Source: Pseudomonadales bacterium (GTDB taxonomy: Bacteria; Patescibacteriota; Microgenomatia; UBA1400; PJMF01). From it: a DNA stretch of 64,000 nucleotides. A program made the translations under genes and the position numbers. The notes beneath the pieces are model-generated. The model searched no databases, was not told where the DNA came from, and saw only the letters and a list, made by a program, of their open reading frames with translations. The stretch spans positions 983,272-1,047,271 of the forward strand of contig JACKFW010000001.1 in assembly GCA_020632265.1 (NCBI GenBank), given 5' to 3'. Positions 36,710-59,983 of this stretch are shown one piece after another; within the stretch, counting starts at the first letter, position 1; every line of letters begins with the position of its first letter.

Positions 36710-36712
36710 GAT

Positions 36713-36769
36713 AAATTAGCGAAAATAAAATAAATTAGCTAAAATAAAATAAATTAGCGAAAATAAAAT
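36713..36769 (+). repeat. Tandem direct repeat, 19-bp unit AAATTAGC(G/T)AAAATAAAAT x3
   Basis: Seen directly between the CofE-like stop and the start of the adenosyltransferase gene. Confidence 0.8.
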
Positions 36770-41862: not shown

Positions 41863-42061
41863 ATTATCTAAAAGCACAATGTAATTTATTCATCAAAAAA
41901 CTTACTATGCCTATGTATTAATAATACACTTTTTTGTAGTTTCTGTAAGCTTTGGATTAGGAATTATGATCCAAAAATTACTAATAATTAATTTAGATAT
42001 CTATCTTTATGATATATCATTTTTATTTTTTTTTGAAAGGGTTAGTGTACAATAAATATAT

Positions 42062-42340
42062 ATGCAAAGAGGTGTTATCCGACTTAGTAATCAAGAATTA
42101 ATAATTCTTTCAAATTTTTTGATTTCTAAAGATTGTCAAGAGGAAAACCTGCTTTTTAAACTTAAACCTGTGGAAAATTTAATTGATCAAACGCAAGAAT
42201 TAGATGTCTTAATTAGTGAAAATGAAGCGGAAATTGTTCTTGATTGTATGCCTATTCCTAGTAAACAAGATGATCCTAATTTGATCAGTGCAAGAACAAA
42301 ACTTCAGCAGTTTATTGCCAAATTAAGATTTGATGAATAG
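42062..42340 (+). CDS. Hypothetical small protein (92 aa)
   Basis: ORF only; no recognisable motif. Confidence 0.3.
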   Translation: MQRGVIRLSNQELIILSNFLISKDCQEENLLFKLKPVENLIDQTQELDVLISENEAEIVLDCMPIPSKQDDPNLISARTKLQQFIAKLRFDE

Positions 42341-42361
42341 CATTATCGCTTCTATTTAAAA

Positions 42362-43453
42362 CTAGATGCCTTGAGTCATTTTTTTAAGTTCATTTTTGAA
42401 GTCATCAACAAATGGAATTGGACTTGGATTGATTCCTTCCAACATGGCCAAATAAAATCCCGCAAATGAAAATGTAGTTAACATTTCGAATACCTGTTCA
42501 ATTTTAGTTTTTGCTTGAAGAGGTATTGTCAAAGTGTCAATTTCATTAACGTCAACAATTTTTTGAGTTAATTGCATTCTAATAATATTTTTTGGATGAT
42601 AAAGCATTGATTGGACGAAGATAAAGATATGATTAACAACATTACTTTTCGGATATTTTAAACCTTCCAAAAGATGGTGATCAATTTCAGGAACAACTTT
42701 ATAATCAATAAAAGCTTTAGCATTTTCGTTATGCTGATTAGCACTGACGTGTCCAGCACCTTCTAAAAAATCTGAAACTACAAATACTGGTCTGCGATCT
42801 ATCATCATGAAAGCAAGGGCTTTTGCTGGATTTTCTTCGACCAATACTTCTATTTTACAATCATCAACTTTTCTATTGATTGTATCTACAACTGCTTTTA
42901 TTTGTTCATCTTTGAGTGAAATTATTCCTGCCTTAGCGAGTAATCCGATGGTTCCAAAAACTGTATAACCAATGGCCATTCTTGGTTGTTGCGAAGGATT
43001 GTATGTTGGGTTGATTTTGTAAAACGTATATTTATTCTTTATAGCAATTTCTTCTAGCTTTCCTCCGGAAGCGATGACCATAATTTGGGCATTTGCACTT
43101 TGAGCTAATTGAGCACAAGAAATTATTTCTTCTGTATTTCCAGAATAACTTGCTAGAATAACAAGTGTGTGTTGATTAACAAATCCGGGAAGTGTGTAAT
43201 CATGCACATAATCAAAGGGTACTTTTAGTTCTTGTTTGAAAAGATTTTTAATTACGTCTGCTCCCAAACCAGAACCCCCCATCCCAGCAACTATGACATT
43301 ATGAATCTCAGTTGTTTTTTCGAATTCAATATTTTTTATTTCATTCCAAGAATGTTCAATTTGATTACCCAATTTTTCGATAGAGCCCATCATATTTTCT
43401 AAATCGAGTTTTGAGATTTCGTCACGAGAATCTAAAATTGAGGTTTTTGTCAT
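42362..43453 (-). CDS. Bifunctional phosphoglucose/phosphomannose isomerase (archaeal-type SIS-domain PGI/PMI)
   Basis: Two SIS domains; VIVAGMGGSGLGADV and VILASYSGNTEE blocks. Confidence 0.65.
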   Translation of the reverse strand: MTKTSILDSRDEISKLDLENMMGSIEKLGNQIEHSWNEIKNIEFEKTTEIHNVIVAGMGGSGLGADVIKNLFKQELKVPFDYVHDYTLPGFVNQHTLVILASYSGNTEEIISCAQLAQSANAQIMVIASGGKLEEIAIKNKYTFYKINPTYNPSQQPRMAIGYTVFGTIGLLAKAGIISLKDEQIKAVVDTINRKVDDCKIEVLVEENPAKALAFMMIDRRPVFVVSDFLEGAGHVSANQHNENAKAFIDYKVVPEIDHHLLEGLKYPKSNVVNHIFIFVQSMLYHPKNIIRMQLTQKIVDVNEIDTLTIPLQAKTKIEQVFEMLTTFSFAGFYLAMLEGINPSPIPFVDDFKNELKKMTQGI

Positions 43454-44262
43454 AAATCTTTTCCTTGGATAATTTTTAATAAATATTCAGCAATACCGTT
43501 CTCGTTGACATTTCCAATTACTTTGTCAGTAATTTGTTTTAGGGTTTCTATTGCATTTTCCATAGAAACACTAAAGCCACATGATTGCAAAAACTCTAGA
43601 TCATTGAGACTGTCCCCAAATCCAATTACTTTTTCCATAGGGATTTGAGTTTTTTCCGACCATTTGTGGAGTAAAGTTGATTTGTTTACTCCTTTTGCCG
43701 TGACATCAATATAAGGTTTTCCAGAATTGTTTCCCACCATTTCTTTATAGGAAAGATTTGGATTGTTTTCAATATAATTTACAATTTCATTATTTAACTT
43801 AGTGATAAAAACTGCCCCTACTCTCTCATTACTCATTTGATCTAATTTTTTTACAACATAATTCCAAGGGTGATTTTTCATTTTAGAATACAATGGTTCA
43901 TCAGCATATTGAGCGTCAGCTTTCATAAATACTGCCAAAGCATTTGATTCGCTTAGGTAATTTTTAATAATTTCGACAGTTAATGGATTGATAGGATGAT
44001 CATAAATAATTTCTCCTTTTGAGTTTACTAATTGAGAGCCTCCGGTAGTAATATGAAATGATTTTTTTGGAAATATAGGCAAAATTTTGTTTTTGATAGC
44101 CGCTGTTCCTCTGCCAGTGCAAATTCCAATTTGATAGCCTAATTTGTCTAATTGATTCAAACAATTAATGGTTTCAGTTGGAATACCATTTCTATCGTTT
44201 GTTAAAGTTCCGTCAAGATCAAAAAGCAAAGCACTAAAATCTGATAATTTTTTATTTTTCAT
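43450..44262 (-). CDS. Cof-type HAD-IIB phosphatase
   Basis: FDLDGTL motif I, ICTGR motif II, GDSLNDLEFL motif IV. Confidence 0.75.
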   Translation of the reverse strand: MKNKKLSDFSALLFDLDGTLTNDRNGIPTETINCLNQLDKLGYQIGICTGRGTAAIKNKILPIFPKKSFHITTGGSQLVNSKGEIIYDHPINPLTVEIIKNYLSESNALAVFMKADAQYADEPLYSKMKNHPWNYVVKKLDQMSNERVGAVFITKLNNEIVNYIENNPNLSYKEMVGNNSGKPYIDVTAKGVNKSTLLHKWSEKTQIPMEKVIGFGDSLNDLEFLQSCGFSVSMENAIETLKQITDKVIGNVNENGIAEYLLKIIQGKDL

Positions 44263-44280: not shown

Positions 44281-45543
44281 TTATTCTTTGATTATTTCAT
44301 TATCATCAATATTATTGATAATGGTTAATCCAGGATAAATTATTGTATTTTCACCAATTAATATTCCAGGCATAGTCTTTACTCCAATGCCTATTTTGAC
44401 GTAATTGCCCGTAATTATTCCCAAATTGTTAATTCCTGTTTCCATAAATTTATTTTTCACCAAAACTTTGATGTTTTTTCTATCTAATCTTTTGTTGGCT
44501 GTAATTAATCCAGCTCCAATTTTGGTTTGAAATCCAATAATGGAATCAGCAATATAGCCATAATGTATCGAAGAATTTTCAAAAAATATGCATCTAACTA
44601 CCTCTGATTTTGCGCCAATTATCACATTCTTTTCAATAGAGCTTCCACGAACAAAAGAATAGTCTCCTACTAGGCAATTTTTGCCTATATAGCAAGGACC
44701 AGAAATTTTACTAAAATCCCCAACTTTTGCACCTGAAGCAATGATTACGGGTCCTCTGGAGTCATCAATGATGGTGGTTTTTGAAATTGTGGCATCATTA
44801 GATATATTAGTTTTTTCATTTGTAATGATTTGGTTGAATGAATTGAATAAATGCCAAGGAAATTTAATACTTTTTATTTGTTCGTTACTTTTTATCCATG
44901 TAATATTGTTGTTTTTTGAGTATGATGTGATTGCGTTTTCTAGCGAATATTCATCGTCGGGAGTGTTGTTTAATTCTTGGATAAATTTTTTATCAAATAA
45001 GTAAACACTGTCGATTTTATATTTTGAAGGTTCTGTCCCTTTTTGAGGTTTTTCAATAATGCCTAAAACCTTAGCTGGGTTAGTTGGATCAAGATTTAAG
45101 ATTCCATATAATTCTGTATTTTCAGTTTGAGTTCCAGAAAAAACACAATTTGCTCCAGACTGATTTTTTTTATTCCAAAGAATTTCGGCTCTATCTCCTA
45201 AATTGAAGTAATATGGTGAAGATACTATGAAAAATTCATCTAAAAAGTCTTTTGCAACCAGTATCGCATCTCCCATTCCTTTGGGTTCATTTTGAAGCAC
45301 AACTTTAATATCTAATCCAAAGTCATTTTCTTTTAAATATTTACTGAAGCCTTGATCTCCATAATCTTTTTGTGAAACTACAATCACGACCTTTTGGTAA
45401 TTATTTTTTTTTAGATTTTCAAGAGCATGTGCGACAATTGGTTTTCCAACTAAGGTTGAAAATCCTTTGTGAGTTTGAGTATTGAGGGGATAAAATCTTG
45501 AGTTTTCTCCTCCGGCAATAATTAGAATTGTAGGTTTTTGCAT
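44281..45543 (-). CDS. Sugar-1-phosphate nucleotidyltransferase fused to a left-handed beta-helix domain (GlmU-like)
   Basis: N-terminal ILIIAGGENSRFYPL...GMGDAIL NTP-transferase motifs; C-terminal hexapeptide-repeat region. Confidence 0.7.
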   Translation of the reverse strand: MQKPTILIIAGGENSRFYPLNTQTHKGFSTLVGKPIVAHALENLKKNNYQKVVIVVSQKDYGDQGFSKYLKENDFGLDIKVVLQNEPKGMGDAILVAKDFLDEFFIVSSPYYFNLGDRAEILWNKKNQSGANCVFSGTQTENTELYGILNLDPTNPAKVLGIIEKPQKGTEPSKYKIDSVYLFDKKFIQELNNTPDDEYSLENAITSYSKNNNITWIKSNEQIKSIKFPWHLFNSFNQIITNEKTNISNDATISKTTIIDDSRGPVIIASGAKVGDFSKISGPCYIGKNCLVGDYSFVRGSSIEKNVIIGAKSEVVRCIFFENSSIHYGYIADSIIGFQTKIGAGLITANKRLDRKNIKVLVKNKFMETGINNLGIITGNYVKIGIGVKTMPGILIGENTIIYPGLTIINNIDDNEIIKE

Positions 45544-45593: not shown

Positions 45594-46361
45594 TTATGCT
45601 AAATAATCAAGTAAGAGTTTGTGTAATATTCCGTTTGAAGCGAGTGCCGATGTTGATTTAGTTGTTATCTTGTTGCCATCAATGTCAGTTACTTTTCCTC
45701 CGGCTTCTTGAATAATCACTAAAACAGCTGCAATATCCCAAATTTTTAGTTTTGCTTCAATAATTGCATCAAGTTTTCCTTCAGCGACAAATTGGTAACT
45801 CCAGGTATCTCCAAATCCTTTCATTCCAGCACAATCTTCGTTAATTTTTACTAATTTATTAAGTATTTCTAGTTTTTTGAAATACTTTAAACTTCCAATA
45901 CTAATATATGCATTTTTAATTTTATCGACTTTACTTACTTGAATTTTTTGAGTTTCATTCAGATAAGCTCCCTGACCTTTTTGGGCATAAACAAATTTTT
46001 TGAGCAATGGAGCATTAGAAATTCCCAAAATCAACTCTTCATCTTCGAATAGAGCTAGTTCTGTAGCAAACAAAGGAATATTTCTCGAGTAGTTTTTTGT
46101 TCCATCAATTGGATCAATCACCCAGGTATACTTTGATTTTTTTTGTGAGTCACCATACTCTTCACCAATGAAGCCATGATCTGGAAAGGCTGACGTGATA
46201 ATTTTTCTAATAATCTGTTCTGACTCTCTGTCTGCAATTGTGACAGGAGAACCATCTTTTTTTGTATCTATATTCAAATTAGTGTCAAAGTATTTCAATA
46301 CGATTTTTTGAGCTTCCTTGACTGCTTCTATTCCTGTTAATAAAAATTTACTCTTATCCAT
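45594..46361 (-). CDS. Inositol-monophosphatase family protein (IMPase/FBPase-type)
   Basis: WVIDPIDGTKNY and WDIAA...EAGG motifs. Confidence 0.8.
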   Translation of the reverse strand: MDKSKFLLTGIEAVKEAQKIVLKYFDTNLNIDTKKDGSPVTIADRESEQIIRKIITSAFPDHGFIGEEYGDSQKKSKYTWVIDPIDGTKNYSRNIPLFATELALFEDEELILGISNAPLLKKFVYAQKGQGAYLNETQKIQVSKVDKIKNAYISIGSLKYFKKLEILNKLVKINEDCAGMKGFGDTWSYQFVAEGKLDAIIEAKLKIWDIAAVLVIIQEAGGKVTDIDGNKITTKSTSALASNGILHKLLLDYLA

Positions 46362-46409: not shown

Positions 46410-47831
46410 CTAATCAAGTGCGTGAGTATTCACTCCCTGGCTCCAATCAATTTCTGGATATTTTTTGAGTATTCTATGTAAAATCTTTTTAACATCATCA
46501 TATTGCTCTCGAGTTTTACCTTCAAATTTTACTGTGATGTATGGACCATTTTGTGATGCTCTCACAATTGCCATTTCATTATTAGTGTCCATTCGAATGC
46601 CATCAATGTCAATATATTTTGCATTTGGCCACTGCGCTTCAAATTCAGACTTAATTTTTGTCTGAACAAATTCAAATTTTATATCATCGGCGAGTCCAAA
46701 CTTAATTTCTGGACTGCTAATATATTTTGATAATTTTGAGGCCGCTTGCGAAAGTGACTGATTTCTTCTTTCAAGATACGCCAAAAGTCTTAAGCTTGCA
46801 TAGGCGCCATCATCGTGTCCATAAAAATTATCCATGAAAAATATGTGTCCAGACAATTCGCCTCCAAAAGGCGCTCTTACTTCTTTTAGTTTGGCTTTAA
46901 TAAAGGAGTGTCCTGTCAGCCACATTACTGGTTCGCCTCCAGCTTTTTCGATTGTTTCTGTAACTTGGCGAGAACAAAGAGTATTGTAAACGATTTTCGA
47001 CCCCGGCATGAAGTCTAAGACATCTTTTGCAAAAAGTGCGACGATTGAGTCCATCCACAATACTTGACCTTGATCATCAACAACTGCCATTCTATCTCCG
47101 TCAGTATCGTAAGCAAAACCAATGTCAGCTTTGGCTTTTTTAACACCTTTGGCTAGTCGATCAAGGACTTCAATTTCAGTTGGATCTGGAACTCCTAAGG
47201 GAAAACTTCCATTTAGCTCAGTATTTTGTTCAATTACATCACAGCCCGCACTTCTCAAAACTTCTGGATAAAATTTTCCCGAAGTAGTGTTGCAAGCATC
47301 AACAACAATTCTCCATTTTTTATTTAAATTAAAGTGTTTTAAAATATCAGTTTTATATGCTGGGAAAATATCCTTTTCTCTATTCGTTCCTGTTCCTGTT
47401 GAGAATTCTCCTTTTTCGCAAAGTATTCTAAGATCTTGAATTTCTTCAGTGATCATGGTCTCAGAATAACCGATTGCCAATTTTAGACCATTATATTCTT
47501 TTGGATTATGAGATGCGGTGATCATTGCACCACCTTTGGTTTTGAATTCGTAAGAGGAAAAATACACAATTTGGCTTAATGAAAGACCTATATCGATTGT
47601 GTTGATTCCCCCATCATTGAGTCCTTTTATAAATGCTTTTGAATAAATTTCTCCAGTCAAGCGATTATCTCTTCCTACTGTTGCTTCTTTAATACGTCGT
47701 TGACTTAGAAACGTGGCATAAGCTCTAGCAAGGGTGTAATAAACATCTTCATTTAGGTCTACATCGGCAACACCTCTGATGTCGTAACCTCTAAAAATTG
47801 ATGAGTTGATATTTTTAACTAATTTGTACAT
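46410..47831 (-). CDS. Phosphoglucomutase/phosphomannomutase (alpha-D-phosphohexomutase)
   Basis: Active-site TASHNPKEYNG; metal-binding DTDGDR; sugar-binding GELSGH. Confidence 0.85.
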   Translation of the reverse strand: MYKLVKNINSSIFRGYDIRGVADVDLNEDVYYTLARAYATFLSQRRIKEATVGRDNRLTGEIYSKAFIKGLNDGGINTIDIGLSLSQIVYFSSYEFKTKGGAMITASHNPKEYNGLKLAIGYSETMITEEIQDLRILCEKGEFSTGTGTNREKDIFPAYKTDILKHFNLNKKWRIVVDACNTTSGKFYPEVLRSAGCDVIEQNTELNGSFPLGVPDPTEIEVLDRLAKGVKKAKADIGFAYDTDGDRMAVVDDQGQVLWMDSIVALFAKDVLDFMPGSKIVYNTLCSRQVTETIEKAGGEPVMWLTGHSFIKAKLKEVRAPFGGELSGHIFFMDNFYGHDDGAYASLRLLAYLERRNQSLSQAASKLSKYISSPEIKFGLADDIKFEFVQTKIKSEFEAQWPNAKYIDIDGIRMDTNNEMAIVRASQNGPYITVKFEGKTREQYDDVKKILHRILKKYPEIDWSQGVNTHALD

Positions 47832-47889: not shown

Positions 47890-47905
47890 GTATGAAAAAG
47901 TATGA
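47890..47905. promoter_or_regulatory. 16-mer GTATGAAAAAGTATGA upstream of the pgm-led operon, identical to the motif at 56753-56768
   Basis: Exact 16-nt identity between the two sites, seen directly. Confidence 0.4.
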
Positions 47906-47916
47906 ACTATGTTAAT

Positions 47917-48597
47917 TTACATTTTTAAAGTTAAAAGGTCAAGAGTTTGAAGCAAATTTAAGTTTGACTTTGAGGTTTTTTGTGATTGATCAATTTTAAG
48001 TAAATATTCGTATAAATCAAGTAATTTTTCAAGAGAAAATTTTGATGCTTGAGCCTTAATTTTTGAGATCATGAACGGTGCGCCTTTTGGTAGGCCACCC
48101 GATTTTATTTCAACTAAACTGCGAATTTGTCTAATAAGCATCAAAAAACAAAAAAAATCTCCGTCTGTTTCAATTGCTGAATGAAGCAAGTTTAATTTTT
48201 TGTTATCAGAATCTTTAGATCCAAGTAAATCTAGCCAAGCAAATAATGTCTTGCTAATTTTATATTCATAAATTTGGGCATTTGGAAACTTATTGAGCAT
48301 GGTTTTTGTAAGTAGTCTTTTTTCCCATAAAATTATGTCATGAGTTTGAGGTTTTGATAAAAGCTCAATAAAGTTTTTCTTTTTGTTTGAAGTTGGCAAT
48401 GAGTGAAGTTCTTCAATGATGATAGTTTTGGATGTTCCAAAAAGATCGGTAGCTCCCAATATTTCTTCTAAATTTGCTTCTGAAAGTTTTTTAGCTTCTA
48501 ATCTGAAGATTTCTTGATCTTTAGCTTTTTTATCCGTAATAATTTCAACTAACTTTTGTCGAGAATTTACAGTGTTTTCTCCGTGGATAATGATCAT
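47917..48597 (-). CDS. DNA polymerase III delta subunit-like (HolA-like) protein
   Basis: Weak resemblance to the delta N-terminal domain (IIIHGENTV... LFGTSKTIIIEEL); 226 aa. Confidence 0.35.
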   Translation of the reverse strand: MIIIHGENTVNSRQKLVEIITDKKAKDQEIFRLEAKKLSEANLEEILGATDLFGTSKTIIIEELHSLPTSNKKKNFIELLSKPQTHDIILWEKRLLTKTMLNKFPNAQIYEYKISKTLFAWLDLLGSKDSDNKKLNLLHSAIETDGDFFCFLMLIRQIRSLVEIKSGGLPKGAPFMISKIKAQASKFSLEKLLDLYEYLLKIDQSQKTSKSNLNLLQTLDLLTLKM

Positions 48598-48620: not shown

Positions 48621-49349
48621 TTAGTCCAGACTCAAGCCATTACGGTTGAGCCATCCTTTATGCTTCAGGTATTCTTGGTCATATTGTTTTACAAAATCCC
48701 AAAACTGTTTTGAATGATTCATGTGAACTAAATGTGACAATTCATGAATAATTACGTAATCAATGATACTAGTATCAAAATGTGCCAATCTCCAGTTGAA
48801 GTTCAAATTTTTCTGGCTTGAACAACTACCCCATCTAGTTTTTTGATTTTTTAACGTAATTTTATTAAAGCTTAAGTTCATGCTTTTTGCTAGCTCATGA
48901 GTTCTTTTGACAATATAATGACTAGCGGAGCTTTTTAAAAAATCATCAATCTTTTTTTTAAACTTTTTATTCAAATCAGTAACAACTTTTGCACTGCTTT
49001 TTTTCGGCATGGTAATTGGCATGGTAATCGGCATGGCAATTGGATTGAAAATAATTTTGTCTCCTCTCACATACACTCCCGACTTTTGATCTGCGGAATA
49101 AATAATTTTTTTCTGATATTTTTTTCCAAAAATGAAGGTAAATTGCTCTGAATCAAACTTTTTACTTTTTGAAGTTTTTTTAAGCGAATCCAAAATCCAT
49201 TGTTGATTTTTTTTGACAAAATGATCAATTATGAACTTAGGAACAAATTTTGGTGAGATCACAATTATTTTGCCATCCTGTTCAATTTTTAGTCTTAAAG
49301 ATTTTGAATTTTTATTGGTTTTATGAGTGTATTCAAATGGAATTATCAT
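48621..49349 (-). CDS. DUF45/YgjP-like (SprT-like) zinc metallopeptidase
   Basis: C-terminal IDYVIIHELSHLVHMNHSKQFW (HExxH...H); internal MPITMPITMP tandem repeat. Confidence 0.7.
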   Translation of the reverse strand: MIIPFEYTHKTNKNSKSLRLKIEQDGKIIVISPKFVPKFIIDHFVKKNQQWILDSLKKTSKSKKFDSEQFTFIFGKKYQKKIIYSADQKSGVYVRGDKIIFNPIAMPITMPITMPKKSSAKVVTDLNKKFKKKIDDFLKSSASHYIVKRTHELAKSMNLSFNKITLKNQKTRWGSCSSQKNLNFNWRLAHFDTSIIDYVIIHELSHLVHMNHSKQFWDFVKQYDQEYLKHKGWLNRNGLSLD

Positions 49350-50014
49350 TTTTGTATTAGATTTATAACTATATTAAGAAGATCAAATTGTATCAGAATA
49401 TTTTGAATATAGTTTGTTCCAACAATTAGAATTGTAGCAATAAATAAATCAATATTATGGGCAGTTGTTTCTTTAGTTTTTCCCAATCTAATTGCCATAA
49501 ATATGTTGATTAAAGTAGTTAGAGCAACAATTATCGCGGTTGCAATTAGAAAATTGACTTCGTCTCGTTTTATCCAATGCATACTTAGCTGGAATTCCAA
49601 GTCTTTTAAGTCAACTAAAACAAATTTAATTGATTCCCAAAATCCAATAAGTCCATGAACTGATAGCAACACCACAGCAATTTTATGCCACCAGTGAAAG
49701 AAGGCATGAGAAATTTTTTTAAGTTTAGTTTTTGAGTTTTTGGATATGGGTTCAATGATGGGTTTGACAAAACTTGATCCTGGCAGTGGCTGGTTAATTT
49801 GTGAAGTAGTTTGTGGCTGGTTAATTTGTGAAGTAGTTTGTGGCTGATTAATTTGAGGAGCAATTTGTGGCTGGTTAATTTGTGAAGTAGTTTGTGGCTG
49901 GTTAATTTGAGGAGTAATTTGTGGCTTAATAATAGAAGAAAAACCATGAGCTTTGGATACTGTATTTTTATTTTGATTAGGTTCTAGTTGAGTTGGGTTT
50001 TCTGCTAGGATCAT
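49346..50014 (-). CDS. Hypothetical membrane protein with N-terminal tandem octapeptide repeats (xxSQINQPQ)
   Basis: Six repeat units encoded by 24-bp tandem DNA repeats (about 49790-49935); C-terminal half has 3 TM helices. Confidence 0.45.
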   Translation of the reverse strand: MILAENPTQLEPNQNKNTVSKAHGFSSIIKPQITPQINQPQTTSQINQPQIAPQINQPQTTSQINQPQTTSQINQPLPGSSFVKPIIEPISKNSKTKLKKISHAFFHWWHKIAVVLLSVHGLIGFWESIKFVLVDLKDLEFQLSMHWIKRDEVNFLIATAIIVALTTLINIFMAIRLGKTKETTAHNIDLFIATILIVGTNYIQNILIQFDLLNIVINLIQK

Positions 50015-50173: not shown

Positions 50174-50258
50174 GCCGAAGTGGCGGAATTGGTATACGCG
50201 CACGGCTTAGAACCGTGTGGAGCAATCCTTGGAGGTTCAAGTCCTCTCTTCGGCACCA
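50174..50258 (+). tRNA. tRNA-Leu (anticodon TAG), long variable arm, CCA encoded
   Basis: GCCGAAGTGGCGGAATTGGTATACGCGCACGGCTTAGAACCGTGTGGAGCAATCCTTGGAGGTTCAAGTCCTCTCTTCGGCACCA; anticodon loop CTTAGAA; class II variable arm. Confidence 0.85.
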
Positions 50259-50260: not shown

Positions 50261-51073
50261 TTATAAGGGACTCTTGATATTTTTAAGTTTAGGATTAGTT
50301 ACTTTAGTATATATTTGCGTTGTTCTGATATTTTGGTGGCCCAATAACTCTTGCACATATCTTACGTCAGTTCCATTCTCTAGCAAATGCGTGGCAAAAG
50401 AGTGCCTTAGTGAATGAAAAGTGGCGATTTTTTTTATTCCTGAATCACGCAAGGCATTCTCGAAAACTTTTTGTGCCGTTCTTGTGGTTAGCTTTCCACC
50501 TCGTTCACTGGCAAAGACAGAATCGTCTCCTACCTTTCCTGCAGTTAAACTCCTCAAACTATCAGTCAAGCTTTCCGGTATGACGCTTATTCGGTCTTTT
50601 TGTCCTTTTGCTTGTTTGATGTGTACCACCAGTTCTTCAAGATCTAAATCTTGAACTTTTAGTGCAATAACTTCGCTTACTCTCAGTCCTGCACCATAAG
50701 CAAGTGATAACATAAGTTTATGTTTGGCATTCTTTACAGTTGTTAAAATTTTGTTTATCTCACTTCTGGATAAAACAATAGGTAAACTGTGTGGTTTTTT
50801 AGCTGATTGAATTTCAATTTTTTGTGAATTTTTTACAACATTGCGATAATAAAACTTAATAGCATTTAACAACAAATTTCTGCTTTGAGGTGAGATACGT
50901 TTTTTCTCACAGTGAAGTAGAAAATCTCTAATGTTTTCTTGATCAAGTTCTGTAAATTTATTGTTTTTGAAAGAAAAATACTTTCGTAAACTATAAAGGT
51001 AACTTTGTAAAGTTTTGGGACTGTAATTTTTAATTTTCAATTCACGTTTTGTTTTCTGAAGCTGTATTTGCAT
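50261..51073 (-). CDS. Tyrosine-type site-specific recombinase/integrase (XerD-like, 270 aa)
   Basis: Core-binding N-terminus (SPKTLQSY); catalytic box with R (LAYGAGLRVSE), HxxR (HSLRHSFAT) and terminal Y (IRTTQIYTKV). Confidence 0.85.
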   Translation of the reverse strand: MQIQLQKTKRELKIKNYSPKTLQSYLYSLRKYFSFKNNKFTELDQENIRDFLLHCEKKRISPQSRNLLLNAIKFYYRNVVKNSQKIEIQSAKKPHSLPIVLSRSEINKILTTVKNAKHKLMLSLAYGAGLRVSEVIALKVQDLDLEELVVHIKQAKGQKDRISVIPESLTDSLRSLTAGKVGDDSVFASERGGKLTTRTAQKVFENALRDSGIKKIATFHSLRHSFATHLLENGTDVRYVQELLGHQNIRTTQIYTKVTNPKLKNIKSPL

Positions 51074-51415
51074 AAGTTATTGAAAATGATTAAAATTGAT
51101 GTAGTTTTTGCAGATTTGAATTTATCATAACTTCGTATAACATACAAATTATTATTTAATTTATGAAAATATATCGTATAAAAATGAGTTAGGCAAAATT
51201 CGCTTCCAACGAGAGCTATTTAGTATTGAAAATATTACTATTCCTTGAACCCTTGCTTTTTATTATTGCACTTTTTCTTTCACCCAAATTTCGCCTCTTC
51301 TATGATAAAATAATAATGAAGTCGGCGAAACTTCTCATGCACGCAAACGTTATACGCCATAATAAAAAGCAATTTGATATAATTTTGGCAATAAATAAAA
51401 GGAGGTGTGAAAAAA

Positions 51416-51939
51416 TGATCGAGAAAAAACCATATAGTATATTAGAGGCACGAGAAACGTTAGATCCACAAAAAGGTAAAGATGCTTTAGCTAAAGCAAT
51501 GTTTCAGCTAATAAGCCTACATGAAGGTCGTATAGATAATCAATCTAAACAAGCATATGTTGAGGCTTGTATTGATGCTTTTGCTAATGGTGTGTACTTT
51601 GAAAAGTTTTGGCAATGTATAGGCCAGGCATTTTCAAATGGGCCAAAAGCATTCCACGAGATGGATTGGCAAAAAGCATTAAACCCTAGTCCCGACACAA
51701 GACCAAGTGAACCAGATTGGAATATTACCGATGATCGTTATGATGGAAATGCTAGAGAAGTATTACAAGTAGCCCTCTCTGAAACCAAAGCATCATTTAA
51801 AAATCTTAAGCCAGGTGATGAAAAAGAAGGCAATTTTTTTCAAAGTATTTTTAATTTAGGCAATTCTGCAATAGGGTTGTTTAGAGGAGGAATGAGTAAA
51901 GCTGAGATTTTATCATCCCTCACTGATCAAGATAAATAA
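51416..51939 (+). CDS. Hypothetical protein (island), 174 aa
   Basis: Start chosen at MIEKKPY, preceded by AAAGGAGGTG RBS. The track ORF extends to 51226. Confidence 0.45.
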
Positions 51940-52307
51940 TTGCCAAAATTATTAAGAACAAGGATAAATTGGCTTTTTATTACGTCCCCGCATACGCTGC
52001 GACCACGCTGCGCTCTTCGGGTCATATAACACGACATATACGGTTCGTCGGTCGCTAACGCTGCCTCACCCATATTTTTTGCCCTTTCTTTCTGATAAAA
52101 TAATAAGGAAGCGGGCAAAAAACATCGCATATGCAGGAACGTTGTCCGACATATTTTTCTGAAAATTTTTGCAAGAAGAATGTTGAAGGATTACAATAAA
52201 GGAAGAAATTTTGATTTTTATTATTTTATGAGGGGGATAAAGGGCGTTTTCACTTGTTCCGTTCCTTCACAATTGAAAAATTATTTATAAATTTAAAAGG
52301 ATAAATT

Positions 52308-53171
52308 ATGGAAAAACCAAAAATACCTGAAGAATTAATACAAAGGAAAATCCCTATTGACGTCTTTGACGCTTCGGTGATATCCCAAAGAGGTGAAATT
52401 GTTGATGTTACTTCATTAATTCCAGCTCGTGAAGGTGAAGATAGAGATTTATTTCAGAGCCAAGTGCAAAGAGTTTTTGACTGGGTTGCAGAAACAATGA
52501 ATTCTCCTGAATATGCTAAATTTGAAATTGAAATTGGAAATATGTTGGCAGAAGTCAAAGGTCAGCACTTCATTTTTGATATTGAAGGTGTTGTGATGAA
52601 TGATGTCCAAAATCAGGTAGATTCGTCTGAAAGAGTTTATCATGTGGTGCCTTGGATGCAACCGTTACTCAAGAAGCTAATTGAAAATGGTAATCAAGTA
52701 GGATTTTGGACTTCTGCAACAGCAGAAAGTTTAGAAAAGATGAGAAAAGCAATGAGTTCAGAATTGGCTGGACTACCAGCCATAAGTATTGAGGATTGGG
52801 GAAAAGTAGCATTAGCCTATAAAGCACAAAGACTCGGCCAGATGACTGACGAGCAGGTGATTGGAGTTATGCAATCAATCTATCCCACCGCAAGTTGGAA
52901 GACTTTTCAAGCTGGACTAGAGATATTTGATGAGGATATGATCGATAACTTCGACGACGACCCGATCTTTTTTTTGAGAGGAAGTAAATATCCACAACTT
53001 TTTATTCCTCCAGAAAACGGATTTTTTGTTGACGACAACAATATGTTTATTGAAAGTGCCAAGAGACATGGCTGGCCCAAACATAGAGCTATAAAAAGTA
53101 GCTATTTTCCCCAGAAAGGAGATGTTTTAAAAGTTGCTCAATATATAAAAGAAGGAATGGAACAGCAATAA
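52308..53171 (+). CDS. HAD-superfamily NT5C-like 5'(3')-deoxyribonucleotidase-like protein with D-x-E variant motif I
   Basis: HFIFDIEGVVMND (motif I-like), VGFWTSAT (motif II), FFVDDN (motif IV); preceded by AAAAGGA RBS. Confidence 0.45.
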   Translation: MEKPKIPEELIQRKIPIDVFDASVISQRGEIVDVTSLIPAREGEDRDLFQSQVQRVFDWVAETMNSPEYAKFEIEIGNMLAEVKGQHFIFDIEGVVMNDVQNQVDSSERVYHVVPWMQPLLKKLIENGNQVGFWTSATAESLEKMRKAMSSELAGLPAISIEDWGKVALAYKAQRLGQMTDEQVIGVMQSIYPTASWKTFQAGLEIFDEDMIDNFDDDPIFFLRGSKYPQLFIPPENGFFVDDNNMFIESAKRHGWPKHRAIKSSYFPQKGDVLKVAQYIKEGMEQQ

Positions 53172-53559
53172 GGAATTTTGGCTCAAAAAATTCACCCCTA
53201 ACCCCTCTTTTTTGAGCCAAAAAGGAAAAAATCAAAATTTCTTTTATAAAGAATCCTTCAACAAATATGGAGAAAAATTTTCAGAAAAATACGCTAAAGC
53301 CACGTTGCACTCTCGCTCCACTTCGTTCCGTTTTACTATGCGATTTATTCTTACGGAAAAAAACACGTAACAGAGATTATCTGGTTGGTAATTTTCAGTT
53401 TTAACCCAAATCTCACTTCTTGAGATTTCGTAAAATTGTGAGCGTTAGCCAACATTTATTTTGCTAATTAGATAGTGGTCCAAGACTGAAGTCACTGTTT
53501 TTATCCTCTCTTTGCGAAATTGTGTATCAGCAATTATAAAAAATGTAAATTGATAAAAA

Positions 53560-53736: not shown

Positions 53737-54585
53737 TTAGTTTGAAATTGAATATGTAGCCGATTCCAAAGCCGAATCTTTAGCCGATTCCAAAGCCGAA
53801 TCTTTAGCCGATTCCAAAGCCGAATCTGAAGCATCAACAAATTCCAACAAGTCTGCTTCTTCTTTATTCTTTATTCCAGATTTTCGGTCGTCATATCTCA
53901 TTTCAGCCATCCACTGATTGATTGAATCTGCCCAACTACCATTACTTGGCGGTGTATATTTTTTCATGATTTTATATGGCGTATCCAAACCTATGTCAAT
54001 ATAATTTTTTTTAAGTGTCTTCGCAGCTTGCTCAAAATTCGCTTCAAAACTGGAAAATTTTGTAACAGTTTGTCCGTATACTCCAAAGCCTAAACAATTA
54101 AATGATTCAATAATATTGCCGTTCTCGTCAGTAGGTTTAGGTGTTTTAACACACAAGTTGCTTTCTTGCATTGCAATAGCTGGTAAAAGTCGAAAATCTA
54201 AATTATATTTATCTGCAAGTTCAACGAAAAATTTGCCAAAGTATTCTTCTGGAACAAGTGGATGGTGTAAATTTCTAGTTTCGCCGTTGTATCTTTTTAA
54301 AAAGTTAGTGATAATTAGAGCTCTGGCATCTTCAGTTTCTACAATTGTTGTTGCCCCTAAAATTTCTTCGCTATTACCGTTTGCTTGACCAATAGAAATT
54401 GCAACATTTTCGTCATAACTATCATTTTCTAGATAAGCTACGATATTATCTTTGTAGAAAGAATAACCGGCAATTGTGGTTACAATTACCCCAGCAGACA
54501 ATAAAAACCAGGCAAAAACAAAGAATAATGATTTCATAAGTATTTTAAACAACAGTAGTATACCAAATATTGTGAACATTGACAT
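53737..54585 (-). CDS. Membrane-anchored protein with possible lysozyme-like/lytic-transglycosylase-like domain and C-terminal DSALESAK repeats
   Basis: N-terminal TM helices; LPAIAMQESN block reminiscent of the SLT-domain catalytic E-S region; three 24-bp tandem repeats at the 3' end (53758-53830). Confidence 0.35.
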   Translation of the reverse strand: MSMFTIFGILLLFKILMKSLFFVFAWFLLSAGVIVTTIAGYSFYKDNIVAYLENDSYDENVAISIGQANGNSEEILGATTIVETEDARALIITNFLKRYNGETRNLHHPLVPEEYFGKFFVELADKYNLDFRLLPAIAMQESNLCVKTPKPTDENGNIIESFNCLGFGVYGQTVTKFSSFEANFEQAAKTLKKNYIDIGLDTPYKIMKKYTPPSNGSWADSINQWMAEMRYDDRKSGIKNKEEADLLEFVDASDSALESAKDSALESAKDSALESATYSISN

Positions 54586-54617: not shown

Positions 54618-55691
54618 ATGATAATAAAAAAATTGATGTTTTTAGCCAGTTTAATTTGCATAATGTTATTACACAGCGTGAGCGAAGTGAGTGCTTTTGA
54701 ATTCTCCAAGTTGGGTGTTCATATTTTAAATGTTTCTGAACTAAAAGACGCTAAAGATCTAGTTATACCTATATCAACTGATATTCTTGGGGTAAATTCT
54801 CAAGAAATATTACCCACTGTTTACGAAGATTGGAATTATGTGACAGTACCAATTACTTTTGACGATATTGAGGATCATAAAGAGTTGGATTGGCAACTAT
54901 TTTTTGATAATGCCAAAACTATGAAGGTTATACCAATTGTTAGATTAACTACAAAATATTCTTTAGAAGATAAAGCTTGGGTGGTTCCAAATAAAAAACA
55001 AATAATTACTCAGTTAGATTTTCTCTCAAAGCTAAATTGGCCTACTGAACAGCGAAACATTATAGTTTTTAATGAAGTTAACCATGCAGCAGAATGGGGA
55101 GGAAAAGTTAATCCACAAGAATACACACAAATTTTGAAATTTGTGAGCAATTGGGCTCACACCGAGGGAAAAAATTATGTAGTTTTACCTGCAGCTATGG
55201 ATTTAGCAGTTCCAAATTCCTCGATTTCATTTGAAGCCTTTAATTATTTAAATCAAATGTATGCAGAGGATCCAGAAATATTTTCGTATGTCGATATTTG
55301 GAATTCGCACTCATATCCTAATCCAGGATTTATTAGTTCTCCCACAAAATATGGCAAGAATTCCTTAAGAGGCTTTGAATATGAATTAGACTATTTGAAA
55401 GCAAAAACTGGTGAAGAATATAAGGTGATGATTACCGAAACAGGTTGGATGGAAACGAAGGCAACTTCAAGATGGTTGAGCTCTTATTATACTTATGCGA
55501 TGCAGCACATTTGGTCAGATGATAGAGTTGTGGCGGTAACTCCATTTTTGCTTAAGGGTGCTCCAGGACCTTTTGCAGGCTTTAGTTTTTATGATGAAAA
55601 TGATCAACCCACCAATCAGTTCCATGCTTTCAAAGCAGCATTACAAAAAATTTCCGAAATCGATTTTCCAAAAGTTAGTTATAAAAATTAA
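54618..55691 (+). CDS. Secreted clan GH-A (TIM-barrel) glycoside hydrolase-like protein
   Basis: Signal peptide; IVFNEVNHAAEWGG (acid/base NE) and MITETGW (nucleophile E) spaced as in GH-A families (GH5/GH1-like). Confidence 0.5.
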   Translation: MIIKKLMFLASLICIMLLHSVSEVSAFEFSKLGVHILNVSELKDAKDLVIPISTDILGVNSQEILPTVYEDWNYVTVPITFDDIEDHKELDWQLFFDNAKTMKVIPIVRLTTKYSLEDKAWVVPNKKQIITQLDFLSKLNWPTEQRNIIVFNEVNHAAEWGGKVNPQEYTQILKFVSNWAHTEGKNYVVLPAAMDLAVPNSSISFEAFNYLNQMYAEDPEIFSYVDIWNSHSYPNPGFISSPTKYGKNSLRGFEYELDYLKAKTGEEYKVMITETGWMETKATSRWLSSYYTYAMQHIWSDDRVVAVTPFLLKGAPGPFAGFSFYDENDQPTNQFHAFKAALQKISEIDFPKVSYKN

Positions 55692-56647: not shown

Positions 56648-56789
56648 AAAATTGTCCGTAATTAGATGTATTCCTTATATTTATTTTTCAATCGATCTAA
56701 AAATATTTTAACAAACTAAAATTAAGATTACATTTGTAACTCGCACTTTAAATGTATGAAAAAGTATGATAATTTTATTTTATCAGAAA

Positions 56790-57605
56790 ATGAAGACCAA
56801 AACGCGCCTTACTATCACTCTTTCCCAAGATTTATTATCTAGAGTAGATTCATTAATTGATGGTCATACTATTCGAAGCCGCTCTCATTCAATTGAAAAT
56901 TTGGTTAGACAAAGTTTATTAGCTAGTGTTGGTACAGCAGTTATTCTAGCCGGTGGTGATAGAAAAAACCAAGAAATCCCCTCTTTAAAAAAGATAGGCA
57001 ATCGCTATGTTCTTTCGATAATGATTGATCAACTAAAAATATTTGGAATTTCTCATATTGTAATTTGTGCTGGCGTTAATGAAGCCAAAATAAAAAGCGT
57101 CTTTGCTGATGGAGCTTCATATGGAGTTAAGATTGTTTACAGTAGTGAAAAAAACCCACTTGGTTCTGCGGGCACTATCAAAAATGCTGAGAAATTAATC
57201 GGCAACGGTTCTTTTTTGGTGATAAACGACAACACTCTCACCAACTTAAACCTCAATGATTTGTTTGAGTTTCATCTGGTGGAGGACTCAATCGCCACGA
57301 TATGTGTAAAACCAAGAATGAGTGAAGAAAAATATGGTCAGGCATTTTTGCATGGCAATAAAATTGTCAAATTTCTGGACAAATCCAAGCACGAAGGCAT
57401 CAGTATTGTTAATATTGGCATGTATGTTTTGAAACCTGAAGTTTTTGAGTTGATTGCAAAATATAAATATCTAAATTTAGAGACAGATATATTTCCAAAG
57501 TTGGCTCGAGAAAAAGAACTAAGCGCATTTGTTTTTCAAGGAAATTGGTTTGATGCCTCAAAAGATCAGTCATATAAGGAAGCTGTCGAGAATTGGAAAG
57601 ATTAA
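56790..57605 (+). CDS. Ribbon-helix-helix (NikR/CopG-like) DNA-binding domain fused to sugar-1-phosphate nucleotidyltransferase domain
   Basis: TRLTITLSQDLLSRVDSLIDGHTIRSRSHSIENLVRQSL matches the NikR-type RHH pattern (beta-strand, then helix-turn-helix with RS(E/H)xIRxxL). Downstream AVILAGGDRK...PLGSAGTI are NTP-transferase motifs. Start chosen at MKTKTRL; the track ORF starts at 56766. Confidence 0.6.
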   Translation: MKTKTRLTITLSQDLLSRVDSLIDGHTIRSRSHSIENLVRQSLLASVGTAVILAGGDRKNQEIPSLKKIGNRYVLSIMIDQLKIFGISHIVICAGVNEAKIKSVFADGASYGVKIVYSSEKNPLGSAGTIKNAEKLIGNGSFLVINDNTLTNLNLNDLFEFHLVEDSIATICVKPRMSEEKYGQAFLHGNKIVKFLDKSKHEGISIVNIGMYVLKPEVFELIAKYKYLNLETDIFPKLAREKELSAFVFQGNWFDASKDQSYKEAVENWKD

Positions 57606-57624: not shown

Positions 57625-58587
57625 ATGGAAGACTCATTAGCATTATCTTTATCTCACGCAACTGAAGTTGGTGCCATTGAAGCTTCCAGGACTGCAGGTT
57701 TTGGCGACAAAAAGAAGGCGGACCAAAAAGCAGTTGAAGCAATGCGAACCTATTTTAATGAACTAGATTTTAATGGTCGAATTGTTATTGGTGAAGGTGA
57801 AAGAGATGAAGCCCCTATGCTTTTTATTGGTGAAAAATTGGGGACCGGTAAAGGTAAAGCAATCGATATCGCTGTTGATCCTTTGGAAAATACCAACGCG
57901 ACTGCAGTTTTTGGTCCGGGAGCAATTGCAGTTTTAGCTGCCAGCGAAAGAGGCGGATTATTTCATGCTCCAGATATGTATATGGATAAATTGATTGTGC
58001 CCGAAGAAGCAGCCGGTAAAGTTGATATTGATTGGGAACCTCAAAGGAACTTGAAGGCAATTGCTAAAGGTTTAGATCGCCATGTTTCTGATTTGGTGAT
58101 CGTGATTCTAGATCGAGAAAGAAATGAAGAGCTGATCGCAAATGTTAGAGGGGCTGGCGCTAGAGTTAAATTGATTAGTGATGGAGACTTAATTCCAGGC
58201 GTGGAAGCTTGTATGAGAGGATCTGGAGTGCATGGAGTCATGGGAATAGGTGCTGCGCCTGAAACAGTGATTACAGCCGCCGCAATGAGATGTTTAAAGG
58301 GTGAGCTTCAAGCCAGATTTTGGCCAAAAAGCGAAGAAGAAAGAAAACGACTTATGAAAATGGGTGGAAAACTTGATAAAGTATATACACAGAATGATTT
58401 AGCTAGTGGTAAGACCGCAATCTTTTGTGCTACTGGGGTCACTGAAGGTTCAATACTTAAAGGAGTGAGATTTTTTGGTTCTGGTGCAAGAACACATACT
58501 TTAATGATGTCTACTCAAAGCAAAAAAATTCGTTTTATTGATACTACTCATGTTTTTAATCATGATGATATTAAATTTAGACTTTAA
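57625..58587 (+). CDS. glpX: Fructose-1,6-bisphosphatase class II GlpX
   Basis: GFGDKKKADQKAVEAMR, IVIGEGERDEAPMLFIGEKLG, DIAVDPLENT, APDMYMDKLIV; near-colinear with E. coli GlpX. Confidence 0.9.
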   Translation: MEDSLALSLSHATEVGAIEASRTAGFGDKKKADQKAVEAMRTYFNELDFNGRIVIGEGERDEAPMLFIGEKLGTGKGKAIDIAVDPLENTNATAVFGPGAIAVLAASERGGLFHAPDMYMDKLIVPEEAAGKVDIDWEPQRNLKAIAKGLDRHVSDLVIVILDRERNEELIANVRGAGARVKLISDGDLIPGVEACMRGSGVHGVMGIGAAPETVITAAAMRCLKGELQARFWPKSEEERKRLMKMGGKLDKVYTQNDLASGKTAIFCATGVTEGSILKGVRFFGSGARTHTLMMSTQSKKIRFIDTTHVFNHDDIKFRL

Positions 58588-58651: not shown

Positions 58652-59983
58652 ATGGTTGATACAAATGAGATAGACAAATTAGTATATTCGGCAGTCTTTG
58701 GATCTGAAGAAGAAAAACAAGATTCAAGATATCAAATTTGGAAATTAGGAGTCGATAATGGCGTATTTTGTGCTTCAATCAATGATTTATATATGGCTCG
58801 TGGTAGAGGTGAATTGCCAAATGATTTTACAGTACCAGCAATGAATGTTAGAGGCATGAACTATGATTTGTCTAGAGGAATTTTTAAAGTTGCTAAGGAA
58901 AAAAACGTTGGAGCGATGATTTTCGAAATTGCGAGATCTGAAATGGGTTATACCGATCAATCCCCTTTTGAATATACGACTGTGGTAACTGCAGCAGCTT
59001 TAAGAGAAGGTTGGTCTGGTCCACTATTTATACAAGGAGATCATATTCAAGCAAAAGCTGAATCAATGGGAGTTATAAAAGAGGGTGAGATTGAAGCAAT
59101 TAAGGATTTAATTAGTCAGTGCATAGCCGGTGGTTTTTATAATATTGACATTGATATGTCAACCTTAGTTGACTTAGACAAGGAAGATGTTTTTGAGCAA
59201 CAAGAGCCAAATGTTAAATATTCTGTCGAGTTAGCTCAGTTTATTAGAGAAATTCAACCAGATGGTATTGAAATTTCCATTGGCGGAGAAATTGGACATA
59301 TTGGTGGAAGAAATAGTACCACTGAAGATTTTGTAGCTTTTATTTCAGGATTTAATGATAGATTGCCAAAGGGATTAGTGGGAATAAGTAAGATTAGTGT
59401 TGCAACTGGTACCTCTCATGGAGGTGTAGTTTTGGCCGATGGCACTTTGGCAGATATTGATGTAGATTTTTCGATTCTTTCAAATATTTCTAAAATTTGT
59501 AGGAATAATTATCAAATTGGTGGCGCAGTTCAACATGGCGCTTCTACTCTACCTGATGAATTTTTTAGCCAATTTCCAAAATCAGAAGCTATTGAAGTGC
59601 ATTTAGCAACTGGATTTCAAAATTTGCAGATGAATCATCCAAATTTTCCCAAAGATTTATTGAATAAAATGTATGCTTGGCTTGATGAAACTAAGCGAGC
59701 TGAAAGAAAAGAAGGTCAAACTGACGAGCAATTTCATTATGAGTTAAGAAAGAAAGCTTGGGGAAAATTTAAAAAAGAATGTTGGGATATTGATGAAAAG
59801 AACAAAACTGAAATTAGAAAATCTATCTCAGAGAGAGTTGAATTTTTATTTGGAGAGATAAATGTTTTTGATACTGCTGAAATGGTTAATTCAATTGTGA
59901 AACCAAATGTGGTCGACAAGGAAAAATCAGATTTTGCACCTTGGGGATCTAAAATTAAAGATGTAATTGGTTTGTCAGACTAA
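58652..59983 (+). CDS. fba: Class II fructose-bisphosphate aldolase (long FbaA type)
   Basis: TVPAMNVRG...AMIFEIARSE, FIQGDHIQ (metal His), ATGTSHGGV blocks. Confidence 0.65.
   Translation: MVDTNEIDKLVYSAVFGSEEEKQDSRYQIWKLGVDNGVFCASINDLYMARGRGELPNDFTVPAMNVRGMNYDLSRGIFKVAKEKNVGAMIFEIARSEMGYTDQSPFEYTTVVTAAALREGWSGPLFIQGDHIQAKAESMGVIKEGEIEAIKDLISQCIAGGFYNIDIDMSTLVDLDKEDVFEQQEPNVKYSVELAQFIREIQPDGIEISIGGEIGHIGGRNSTTEDFVAFISGFNDRLPKGLVGISKISVATGTSHGGVVLADGTLADIDVDFSILSNISKICRNNYQIGGAVQHGASTLPDEFFSQFPKSEAIEVHLATGFQNLQMNHPNFPKDLLNKMYAWLDETKRAERKEGQTDEQFHYELRKKAWGKFKKECWDIDEKNKTEIRKSISERVEFLFGEINVFDTAEMVNSIVKPNVVDKEKSDFAPWGSKIKDVIGLSD

Follow-up and report, generated by a model that had tools for sequence, protein, structure and literature searches.

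Ribbon-helix-helix (RHH) proteins such as MetJ, the omega protein of pSM19035, CopG and Arc bind adjacent short repeats cooperatively as dimers, and omega accepts both direct and inverted arrays of its heptad. The operator of the Escherichia coli regulator NikR is GTATGA-N16-TCATAC, and each GTATGA half-site is filled by the antiparallel beta-strands of one NikR RHH dimer (PMC7055735, PMC4486848). For enterobacterial NikR the consensus is GTATGAT-N13/14-ATCATAC (PMC545781). We analyzed a 64-kb stretch of contig JACKFW010000001.1, the whole of which is referred to here as the window; it is bacterial by its 16S rRNA gene and approximately 33% GC, and its closest relatives are Patescibacteria/Paceibacteria metagenome-assembled genomes. 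The window carries the NikR half-site as a direct repeat, GTATGA-N4-GTATGA, at two positions. One lies upstream of a gene predicted to encode an RHH domain joined to a domain with a sugar-1-phosphate nucleotidyltransferase (NTase) fold, designated here the RHH-NTase, and the other lies upstream of pgm. Comparison with related DNA makes it very probable that this motif is the conserved operator of an RHH-NTase regulon. The two sites and the genes that they adjoin are as follows.

56754..56769, plus strand: operator O1, GTATGA-AAAA-GTATGA, ending 20 nt before the ATG of the RHH-NTase gene.
47890..47905, plus strand: operator O2, the same 16-mer as O1, inverted relative to pgm and reading TCATACTTTTTCATAC in the direction of pgm.
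56790..57605, plus strand: RHH-NTase-like protein of 271 aa, with a NikR-like RHH domain (residues 4-47) and a PF00483-fold domain; the proposed repressor.
46410..47831, minus strand: pgm (phosphoglucomutase/phosphomannomutase), first gene of the proposed regulated operon.
47917-48597, minus strand: holA-like gene, the upstream neighbor of pgm.

The window has just two exact copies of the 16-mer GTATGAAAAAGTATGA, both on the plus strand and outside coding sequence. Exact searching recovered the copy at 47890-47905 that an earlier note on this DNA had reported, and moved the other by one base, from 56753-56768 to 56754-56769. O2 lies within the 85-bp spacer between the holA-like gene and pgm, 11 nt after the holA-like stop (47917) and 58 nt upstream of the pgm ATG at 47831, in keeping with the earlier estimate of about 60 nt. 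The earlier note had also drawn attention to an ATG at 56766. This codon does overlap the motif (56766-56768 lie inside the second GTATGA), but it is not the start of the gene: all homologues share a start corresponding to ATG 56790 (MKTKTRL), and the distance from the site to this start is 20 nt rather than about 22 nt. No third copy of the 16-mer with two or fewer mismatches was found in the window (0.10 expected; 0 of 100 shuffles reached 2). Identity over 16 nt had been considered unlikely by chance, an argument that fails because approximately 12 dispersed exact 16-mer repeats are expected in a window this rich in AT; about 12 were observed, and the mean of third-order Markov simulations was 11.7. 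Neither the hexamer GTATGA (24 found, 26.9 expected) nor degenerate bipartite copies with up to three mismatches (56 found, 60.9 expected) were enriched in the window. Matches with two mismatches at 2690, 5626, 9848 and 60932 all fall within long open reading frames (ORFs) and were treated as chance. Judged by sequence comparison, the significance of the motif derives from its conservation in relatives.

Conservation was assessed in 90 loci, 10 from a scan of one genome per species and 80 from a metagenome scan, which together with the window amount to 1.01 Mb (the loci are cited as L001 to L090). GTATGA-N4-GTATGA was found in 52 exact copies (46 distinct) compared to 0.2 expected from base composition. 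Forty of these precede the regulator gene, eight precede pgm, three glpX and one gapdh, and none lies elsewhere. Two expectations of the earlier note were thereby borne out, namely that the motif is rare (two noncoding sites in 64 kb, and all exact copies in the related DNA at the 5' ends of genes) and that it is conserved at orthologous RHH-NTase genes, down to 37% protein identity. Several copies come from contigs with a GC content of 61-70%, a composition that makes an AT-rich 12-mer particularly unlikely. The motif lies directly upstream of the RHH-NTase orthologues of L001-L005 (65-76% identity) and of L008 and L009 (37-39%), and a one-mismatch variant occupies this position in L010. In total, 38 of 81 distinct loci have an operator with at most one mismatch in an autoregulatory position, within 120 nt of the regulator start.

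The site at pgm is conserved in the same manner. The holA-pgm spacers of L002, L003, L004, L006 and L007 carry the motif in the orientation seen in the window, and in an alignment of six pgm upstream regions TCATACTTTwTCATAC is invariant, with two promoter-like blocks upstream of it and unconserved sequence downstream. In L003, L004 and L014, glpX lies apart from the regulator gene, and its own spacer contains its own exact operator. In loci with pgk ahead of the regulator gene, arrays that are N5-spaced or have one mismatch are present at the pgk promoter. The pgk promoters of L018 (8660-8720) and L020 (8660-8715), which head pgk-regulator(-glpX)-aldolase-like operons, have N5-spaced half-sites (GTATGAtaaagGTATGA) and an extra GTATAA that doubles as the -10, indicating that the spacing is somewhat flexible.

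The consensus of the distinct sites, aAaaGTATGA[A/C/T]AAAGTATGA[C/T]A, consists of two 10-bp units AAGTATGAYA in which both hexamers are fixed and the spacer bases vary. The density of two-mismatch copies in intergenic DNA was approximately five times that in coding DNA. Three tandem units are present in L039 and L076, and four half-sites in an inverted arrangement in L050 and L055, such that arrays of three to four half-sites occur in direct or inverted order. These four arrays resemble the heptad arrays of omega. The systems differ in that MetJ, omega, CopG and Arc are small stand-alone RHH proteins or, for MetJ, use S-adenosylmethionine as corepressor, and in that their repeat units are 7-9 bp compared to 10 bp here.

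The RHH domain itself points to the same half-site. When the family profile was compared with solved structures, the best match was the DNA-binding domain of E. coli NikR (1q5v, 2hzv; E 3e-6, residues 5-47), and PF01402 is present in many homologues. In a single-sequence alignment, RLTITL...DLL..DSL...NRS.AI of the window protein aligns with RVTITL...DLL..DSL...NRS.AI of NikR, and none of R6, T8, I9, T10 and L11 varies among 32 diverse homologues. An AlphaFold2 (AF2) monomer model places helices at residues 13-22 and 31-43, after an extended N-terminus. No other NikR-like RHH ORF was found in the window. The combination of a NikR-type recognition strand with the NikR hexamer, which is independent of genomic co-occurrence, indicates this protein as the reader of the motif. 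The earlier proposal that RHH dimers in tandem would suit direct repetition of GTATGA every 10 bp is supported. E. coli NikR has the recognition strand and the half-site in common with this system.

NikR is thus the closest described relative in its DNA-binding domain, recognition strand (R-V/L-T-I-T-L) and half-site, and it likewise fuses the RHH domain to a C-terminal ligand-binding/oligomerization domain and has an operator that overlaps the promoter. The two systems differ in three respects. NikR has an ACT-like, nickel-binding tetramerization domain with a His/Cys nickel site, whereas the C-terminal 220 residues of the window protein match PF00483 and have the sugar-nucleotidyltransferase fold instead. 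The NikR operator is an inverted repeat with N16, bound by two dimers at the ends of the tetramer, whereas the half-sites here are in direct repeat 10 bp apart (N4, sometimes N5). Lastly, NikR targets nickel uptake, and the genes here are carbohydrate genes. The RHH-NTase is therefore not a NikR, and on sequence grounds it is better described as a putative one-component repressor of the RHH class whose sensor domain and regulon are both new.

In L063, L066, L076 and L086 the recognition strand is R-V/I-T-L-T-L rather than R-L-T-I-T-L, and the operators are rich in GTGTGA half-sites (e.g. GTGTGATGAAGTGTGA), inverted, and approximately 60-130 nt upstream of the regulator start. Recognition strand and half-site may co-vary in these four loci.

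The position of the operator relative to the promoter was assessed at 21 regulator-gene sites with a recognizable TTGACA-16/18-(-10) promoter, to which L039, L050 and L055 contribute two each. Counted from the first base of the -10, the operator begins somewhere from -22 to +6 at 20 of the 21, so that the -10 and the transcription start are covered. The exception is L038 (+36), which has a weak promoter match downstream of the operator. At pgm, one candidate promoter was identified.

47914..47942, minus strand: candidate pgm promoter TTGACC-17-TAAATT, matching at 9 of 12 positions, its -10 overlapping the holA stop codon.

The operator begins 8 nt downstream of this candidate -10 and would cover the transcription start, and the blocks TTGAyC and TGTAnATT are kept in relatives. 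An operator placed over the -10 and start has the geometry of a repressor site, and from this geometry we infer that regulation is negative. In the clade of the window, the second half-site plus its flank (TATGATAAT) may itself be the -10 of the regulator gene. TTGTCC-18-TATATT (56652-56681), the single nearby hit of the promoter scan, was rejected as the regulator promoter, as it lies 73 nt upstream, is not conserved, and another gene occupies this place in relatives.

The genes downstream of the two operators, in addition to the regulator and pgm, are these.

57625..58587, plus strand: glpX, class II fructose-1,6-bisphosphatase (PF03320, E 7e-125), its start set by alignment with relatives.
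58652..59983, plus strand: class II fructose-bisphosphate aldolase-like gene, 3' of glpX.
45594..46361, minus strand: inositol-monophosphatase (IMPase)-family phosphatase.
44281..45543, minus strand: archaeal-GlmU-like sugar-1-phosphate nucleotidyltransferase/acetyltransferase, enzyme motifs GGxxSRFxPL and IIEKP retained.
43450..44262, minus strand: Cof-type haloacid dehalogenase (HAD) phosphatase.
42362..43453, minus strand: bifunctional phosphoglucose/phosphomannose isomerase (PGI/PMI), last gene of the tight operon.

Because glpX starts 19 nt after the regulator stop, it is probably co-transcribed with the regulator. The aldolase-like gene follows glpX in the window and in L001, L003-L005, L018-L020, L022 and L036, and in L013 and L023/L024 it lies directly after the regulator gene, without glpX. 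In other loci the regulator gene is directly followed by a class V fructose-bisphosphatase (FBPase) gene (L039) or by pgm (L063, L076, L086). On the minus strand, the same five genes that the earlier note had assigned to the pgm operon stand in a tight row. Across lineages, the operator-bearing genes and operons comprise gapdh, pgk, glpX, the aldolase-like gene, pgm/pmm, PGI/PMI, sugar-1-phosphate NTase genes and phosphatase genes. As predicted from these sites, the regulon covers the upper branch of gluconeogenesis and the steps by which this branch feeds hexose phosphates and nucleotide sugars. The small regulon proposed earlier, in which autoregulation was combined with control of hexose-phosphate and nucleoside diphosphate (NDP)-sugar synthesis, is supported by the conserved sites but was drawn too narrowly, as glpX and the aldolase-like gene belong to it as well and, elsewhere, pgk and gapdh. 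Enolase and cofactor-independent phosphoglycerate mutase were not assigned to the regulon in the window, where the 484-bp gap upstream of enolase (41878-42361) contains only three-mismatch matches.

In RmlA, GlmU and the GDP-mannose pyrophosphorylase (GMPP)-type enzymes, the GxGTRxxPxT...PK loop and the EKP and GD motifs bind the nucleotide and phosphates, with the Asp of GD binding metal, and are needed for catalysis. Residues 50-271 of the window protein have the fold of these enzymes (PF00483, Pfam E 2.2e-24); the AF2 model has a mean confidence (pLDDT) of 84.6, and its best Foldseek matches are tlr0611, VTC1 and GMPPB, with E of about 2e-20. In place of the signature loop G-x-G-T-R-x-x-P-x-T...P-K the window protein has GGDRK------NQEIPSLK, in place of EKP it has FLDKS, and in place of GD it has VINDNT, its clade having NDN for (H)GD.

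The family falls into two subfamilies, designated short-loop (47 distinct loci, including the window) and long-loop (34 distinct loci). In 44 of the 47 short-loop loci a 6-residue deletion removes x-R-P-x-T, and the remnant of the loop is unconserved. The Lys of P-K is replaced in this subfamily, by Pro in 31 of 47, and E-K-P is lost, with its Lys kept in 12 of 47 and its Pro lost. The Asp of (H)GD is kept in 39 of 47, and G-T-A-G, E-x-D-x-F-P and G-x-W-x-D are retained. The long-loop members keep G-G-x-G-x-x-M-R-P-F-T...P-K, with EKP in 27-28 of 34 and the GD Asp in all 34. An operator lies within 120 nt of the regulator start in 28/47 short-loop compared to 10/34 long-loop loci, and within 1.5 kb in 34/47 compared to 12/34. 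Long-loop genes often stand beside cell-envelope genes, either those for mevalonate-diphosphate decarboxylase and undecaprenyl-diphosphate synthase or one for a PMT-type glycosyltransferase. The short-loop subfamily is linked to glycolytic/gluconeogenic genes (L008-L010 and L054-L090 were set against the window and L001-L053).

The family looks like an enzyme-regulator fusion that is turning into a pure regulator. Because catalytic motifs are lost, the operator is commoner in the short-loop subfamily, and the NTase of the pgm operon has its motifs intact (GGENSRFYPL, IIEKP), we infer that the C-terminal domain is a sensor/oligomerization module; that it acts in the window protein as a ligand sensor devoid of catalysis is a close call, which we judge to lean slightly in favor. 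The fusion of RHH and NTase domains recognized in the earlier note stands in that both folds were found, but its NTase part has lost motifs and is probably without catalysis. A precedent for sensing of NDP-sugars by the NTase fold is GMPPA (PDB 7d72), a catalytically inactive paralogue of GDP-mannose pyrophosphorylase that senses GDP-mannose; the structures that best match the C-terminal domain here include GMPPB and VTC1. GMPPA differs in that it has no DNA-binding domain and acts by allosteric regulation of an enzyme.

PutA, BirA and NadR are enzyme-derived one-component regulators, and they provide the model for an alternative in which the RHH-NTase is an active bifunctional trigger enzyme that makes an NDP-sugar and represses according to substrate occupancy. 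The operator assignment would be unchanged. The fold and the pocket residues G-T-A-G, E-x-D-x-F-P and G-x-W-x-D are kept, as is the (H)GD Asp in most short-loop members, basic residues remain near the shortened loop, and the long-loop relatives resemble true enzymes fused to the same RHH domain. The signature loop, however, is deleted and its remnant unconserved, the Lys of PK and EKP are lost, the clade of the window has NDN for (H)GD, and the separate NTase of the pgm operon retains its motifs. We consider an active enzyme unlikely. As in PutA (RHH plus a proline-catabolic enzyme), BirA, NadR and the MocR-type GntR proteins, a DNA-binding domain is fused to a pathway enzyme or enzyme-like domain, with autoregulation of the gene and, presumably, a metabolite of the pathway as effector. 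In MocR regulators the sensory domain is described as aminotransferase-like (PMC5320631). What sets the present system apart is the PF00483 NTase as fusion partner, the operator, and the coexistence of one decayed subfamily with a sister subfamily that retains the motifs.

With the C-terminal domain read as a sensor, the following mechanism is proposed. The protein encoded at 56790-57605 would be a one-component regulator that binds GTATGA-N4-GTATGA, its NikR-type RHH domain reading GTATGA through the beta-strand R-L-T-I-T-L. Two RHH dimers would sit in tandem on one face of the DNA, one helical turn apart, joined by the oligomeric NTase-like domain. The bound protein would cover the -10/start region and repress two operons, its own (regulator, glpX and aldolase-like gene) and that of pgm with the IMPase-family, GlmU-like NTase, HAD phosphatase and PGI/PMI genes. 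Between them, these operons would provide for the conversion of triose and fructose bisphosphate into hexose phosphates and nucleotide sugars. The C-terminal domain would most likely sense a sugar phosphate (e.g. a sugar-1-phosphate) or an NDP-sugar of the controlled pathway and thereby modulate DNA binding.

A functional analogue is CggR of Bacillus. This repressor also controls its own gene, recognizes direct repeats in the promoter of a gapA/pgk-type operon and has a sugar phosphate as its signal; in the present system the operator is found, depending on the lineage, at gapdh, pgk, glpX, the aldolase-like gene and pgm. CggR belongs to an unrelated family of the DeoR/SorC type, whereas the protein here combines RHH with an NTase fold, and homology is not claimed. 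More tentatively, the short-loop RHH-NTases might be a new class of metabolite-sensing repressors, with a catalytically dead NTase as sensor, and might exert the main transcriptional control over gluconeogenesis and the supply of hexose phosphates in Patescibacteria (glpX, aldolase-like gene, gapdh, pgk, pgm, pgi/pmi), a counterpart of CggR derived from an RHH-fused enzyme that is still extant as the long-loop subfamily. We regard this broader proposal as plausible, though somewhat short of probable.

Several observations weigh against the assignment of the motif to this protein as its operator. The loci were collected via the regulator gene, which biases the background frequency toward the regulator. 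L006, L007, L015 and L016 have no motif before the regulator gene; L006, L007 and L016 keep the motif at pgm, and the contig of L015 ends short of the pgm region. No operator with at most one mismatch was found within 1.5 kb upstream in approximately 28% of short-loop and 65% of long-loop loci. The window protein scores 18.8 bits against Pfam RHH_1, just below the curated cut-off of 20.5. An RHH dimer, which places a two-stranded antiparallel sheet in the major groove, is two-fold symmetric, and the hexamer is asymmetric and in direct repeat. No sigma-70-type promoter scoring at least 9/12 was found at the regulator gene in the clade of the window, and the conserved promoter blocks at pgm overlap the coding end of holA, so that coding constraint may explain their conservation.

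A different transcription factor whose gene lies elsewhere in the genome, for example a true NikR or some other RHH protein, could bind the motif, with the RHH-NTase gene merely one of its targets. The half-site equals that of enterobacterial NikR, and the view of this genome is 64 kb. Against this, the motif follows the RHH-NTase gene across lineages of 33% to 70% GC, as autoregulation would predict, and the RHH-NTase protein itself has the NikR-type recognition strand. The direct repeat with N4 also contrasts with the inverted N16 of NikR, no target is related to nickel, and the window holds no second NikR-like RHH ORF. Binding by another factor is therefore improbable.

Still less probable is that the motif is a core-promoter element, formed by tandem TATGAT boxes resembling the -10 or by the site of an alternative sigma factor. 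The TATGAT within GTATGAT shares 5 of 6 bases with the -10 consensus, and a half-site coincides with the predicted -10 in L008, L009 and L075. A core element would not be expected in both orientations relative to the gene, yet the motif is inverted at pgm and in L036, L066 and L076, and, measured against clear TTGACA-17-(-10) promoters, it can lie anywhere from -22 to +6. In contrast to -10 boxes, the motif keeps both of its G positions without variation, and it is confined to a handful of functionally linked genes, the other promoters of the window being ordinary.

Coincidence between two AT-rich intergenic regions, which the number of dispersed 16-mers in the window would by itself allow, is refuted by the related DNA, where each of the 52 exact copies stands at one of four kinds of gene start, and we give it practically no weight. 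A toxin-antitoxin module of the MNT/AbiE type, with an RHH antitoxin and an NTase toxin, was rejected, as the domain has the PF00483 sugar-NTase fold and not the Pol-beta type, and as the gene is a single fused one, not a small mobile two-gene module, and has glpX, the aldolase-like gene, pgk and pgm as conserved neighbors.

In the source databases the protein is labeled sugar-phosphate nucleotidyltransferase, mannose-1-phosphate guanylyltransferase or hypothetical, and it passed no NCBIfam model. In the literature searched we found no description of an RHH-nucleotidyltransferase regulator or of such a regulon in Patescibacteria; matches for RHH together with nucleotidyltransferase all concerned toxin-antitoxin systems with another type of NTase. 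The Patescibacteria (candidate phyla radiation) have tiny genomes and few recognizable transcription factors, and their metabolic regulation is barely known. The analysis puts forward a concrete regulator, operator and regulon, and the 20-bp consensus of the site lends itself directly to electrophoretic mobility shift assays (EMSA), reporters and genome scans. The system would also exemplify the reuse of a DNA-recognition module, the NikR strand with GTATGA, with another sensor domain and half-site geometry, and the decay of an enzyme-regulator fusion to a pure sensor, with both stages extant.

The region between the two operators differs from that of relatives. The operators are 8.9 kb apart in the window compared to 4.5 kb in L002 and L003, because of an integrase element and of extra ORFs at 51226-53171 and 55688-56647 that are missing in L001-L005. 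The tyrosine recombinase/integrase gene (50261-51073, minus strand; PF00589, E 2e-43) adjoins tRNA-Leu (50174-50258). Its product is 97% identical to the counterpart in L007 (L007:2371-3180), whereas neighboring L007 genes are only about 30-55% identical to those of the window, suggesting recent exchange of a mobile element. The unannotated ORF at 52308-53171 (287 aa, no Pfam match) stands between two perfect inverted-repeat pairs of 19 nt and 17 nt, at 52152-52219 and 53227-53291; this may be a small mobile cassette, or the repeats may be paired regulatory or terminator elements. The ORF at 55688-56647 (minus strand) encodes an acidic, low-complexity protein of 319 aa with no Pfam match and lies between a conserved 357-aa gene and the regulator. 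It is absent at that position in L001-L005, and the O1 region is a divergent intergenic region only in this genome.

Two RNA genes were located in another part of the window.

19426-20917, minus strand: 16S rRNA gene.
16366-16440, minus strand: tRNA-Ile, the nearest to the 16S gene, 3 kb downstream, with protein-coding ORFs between.

Rfam identified no 23S rRNA gene in the 64 kb, and given the ORFs between the 16S gene and tRNA-Ile, the rRNA operon appears to be split. The gene for cofactor-independent phosphoglycerate mutase (38340-40511, minus strand) is unusually long, encoding 723 aa with Pfam domains from residue 186, and an exact 42-bp tandem duplication (40069-40152) lies in its N-terminal extension. 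Other short exact repeats have 27-bp units at 49786-49890 (ORF 49346-50014), 24-bp units at 53757-53804 (ORF 53737-54585), and units of approximately 19-40 bp at 26796-26828, 36711-36759 and 22655-22704.

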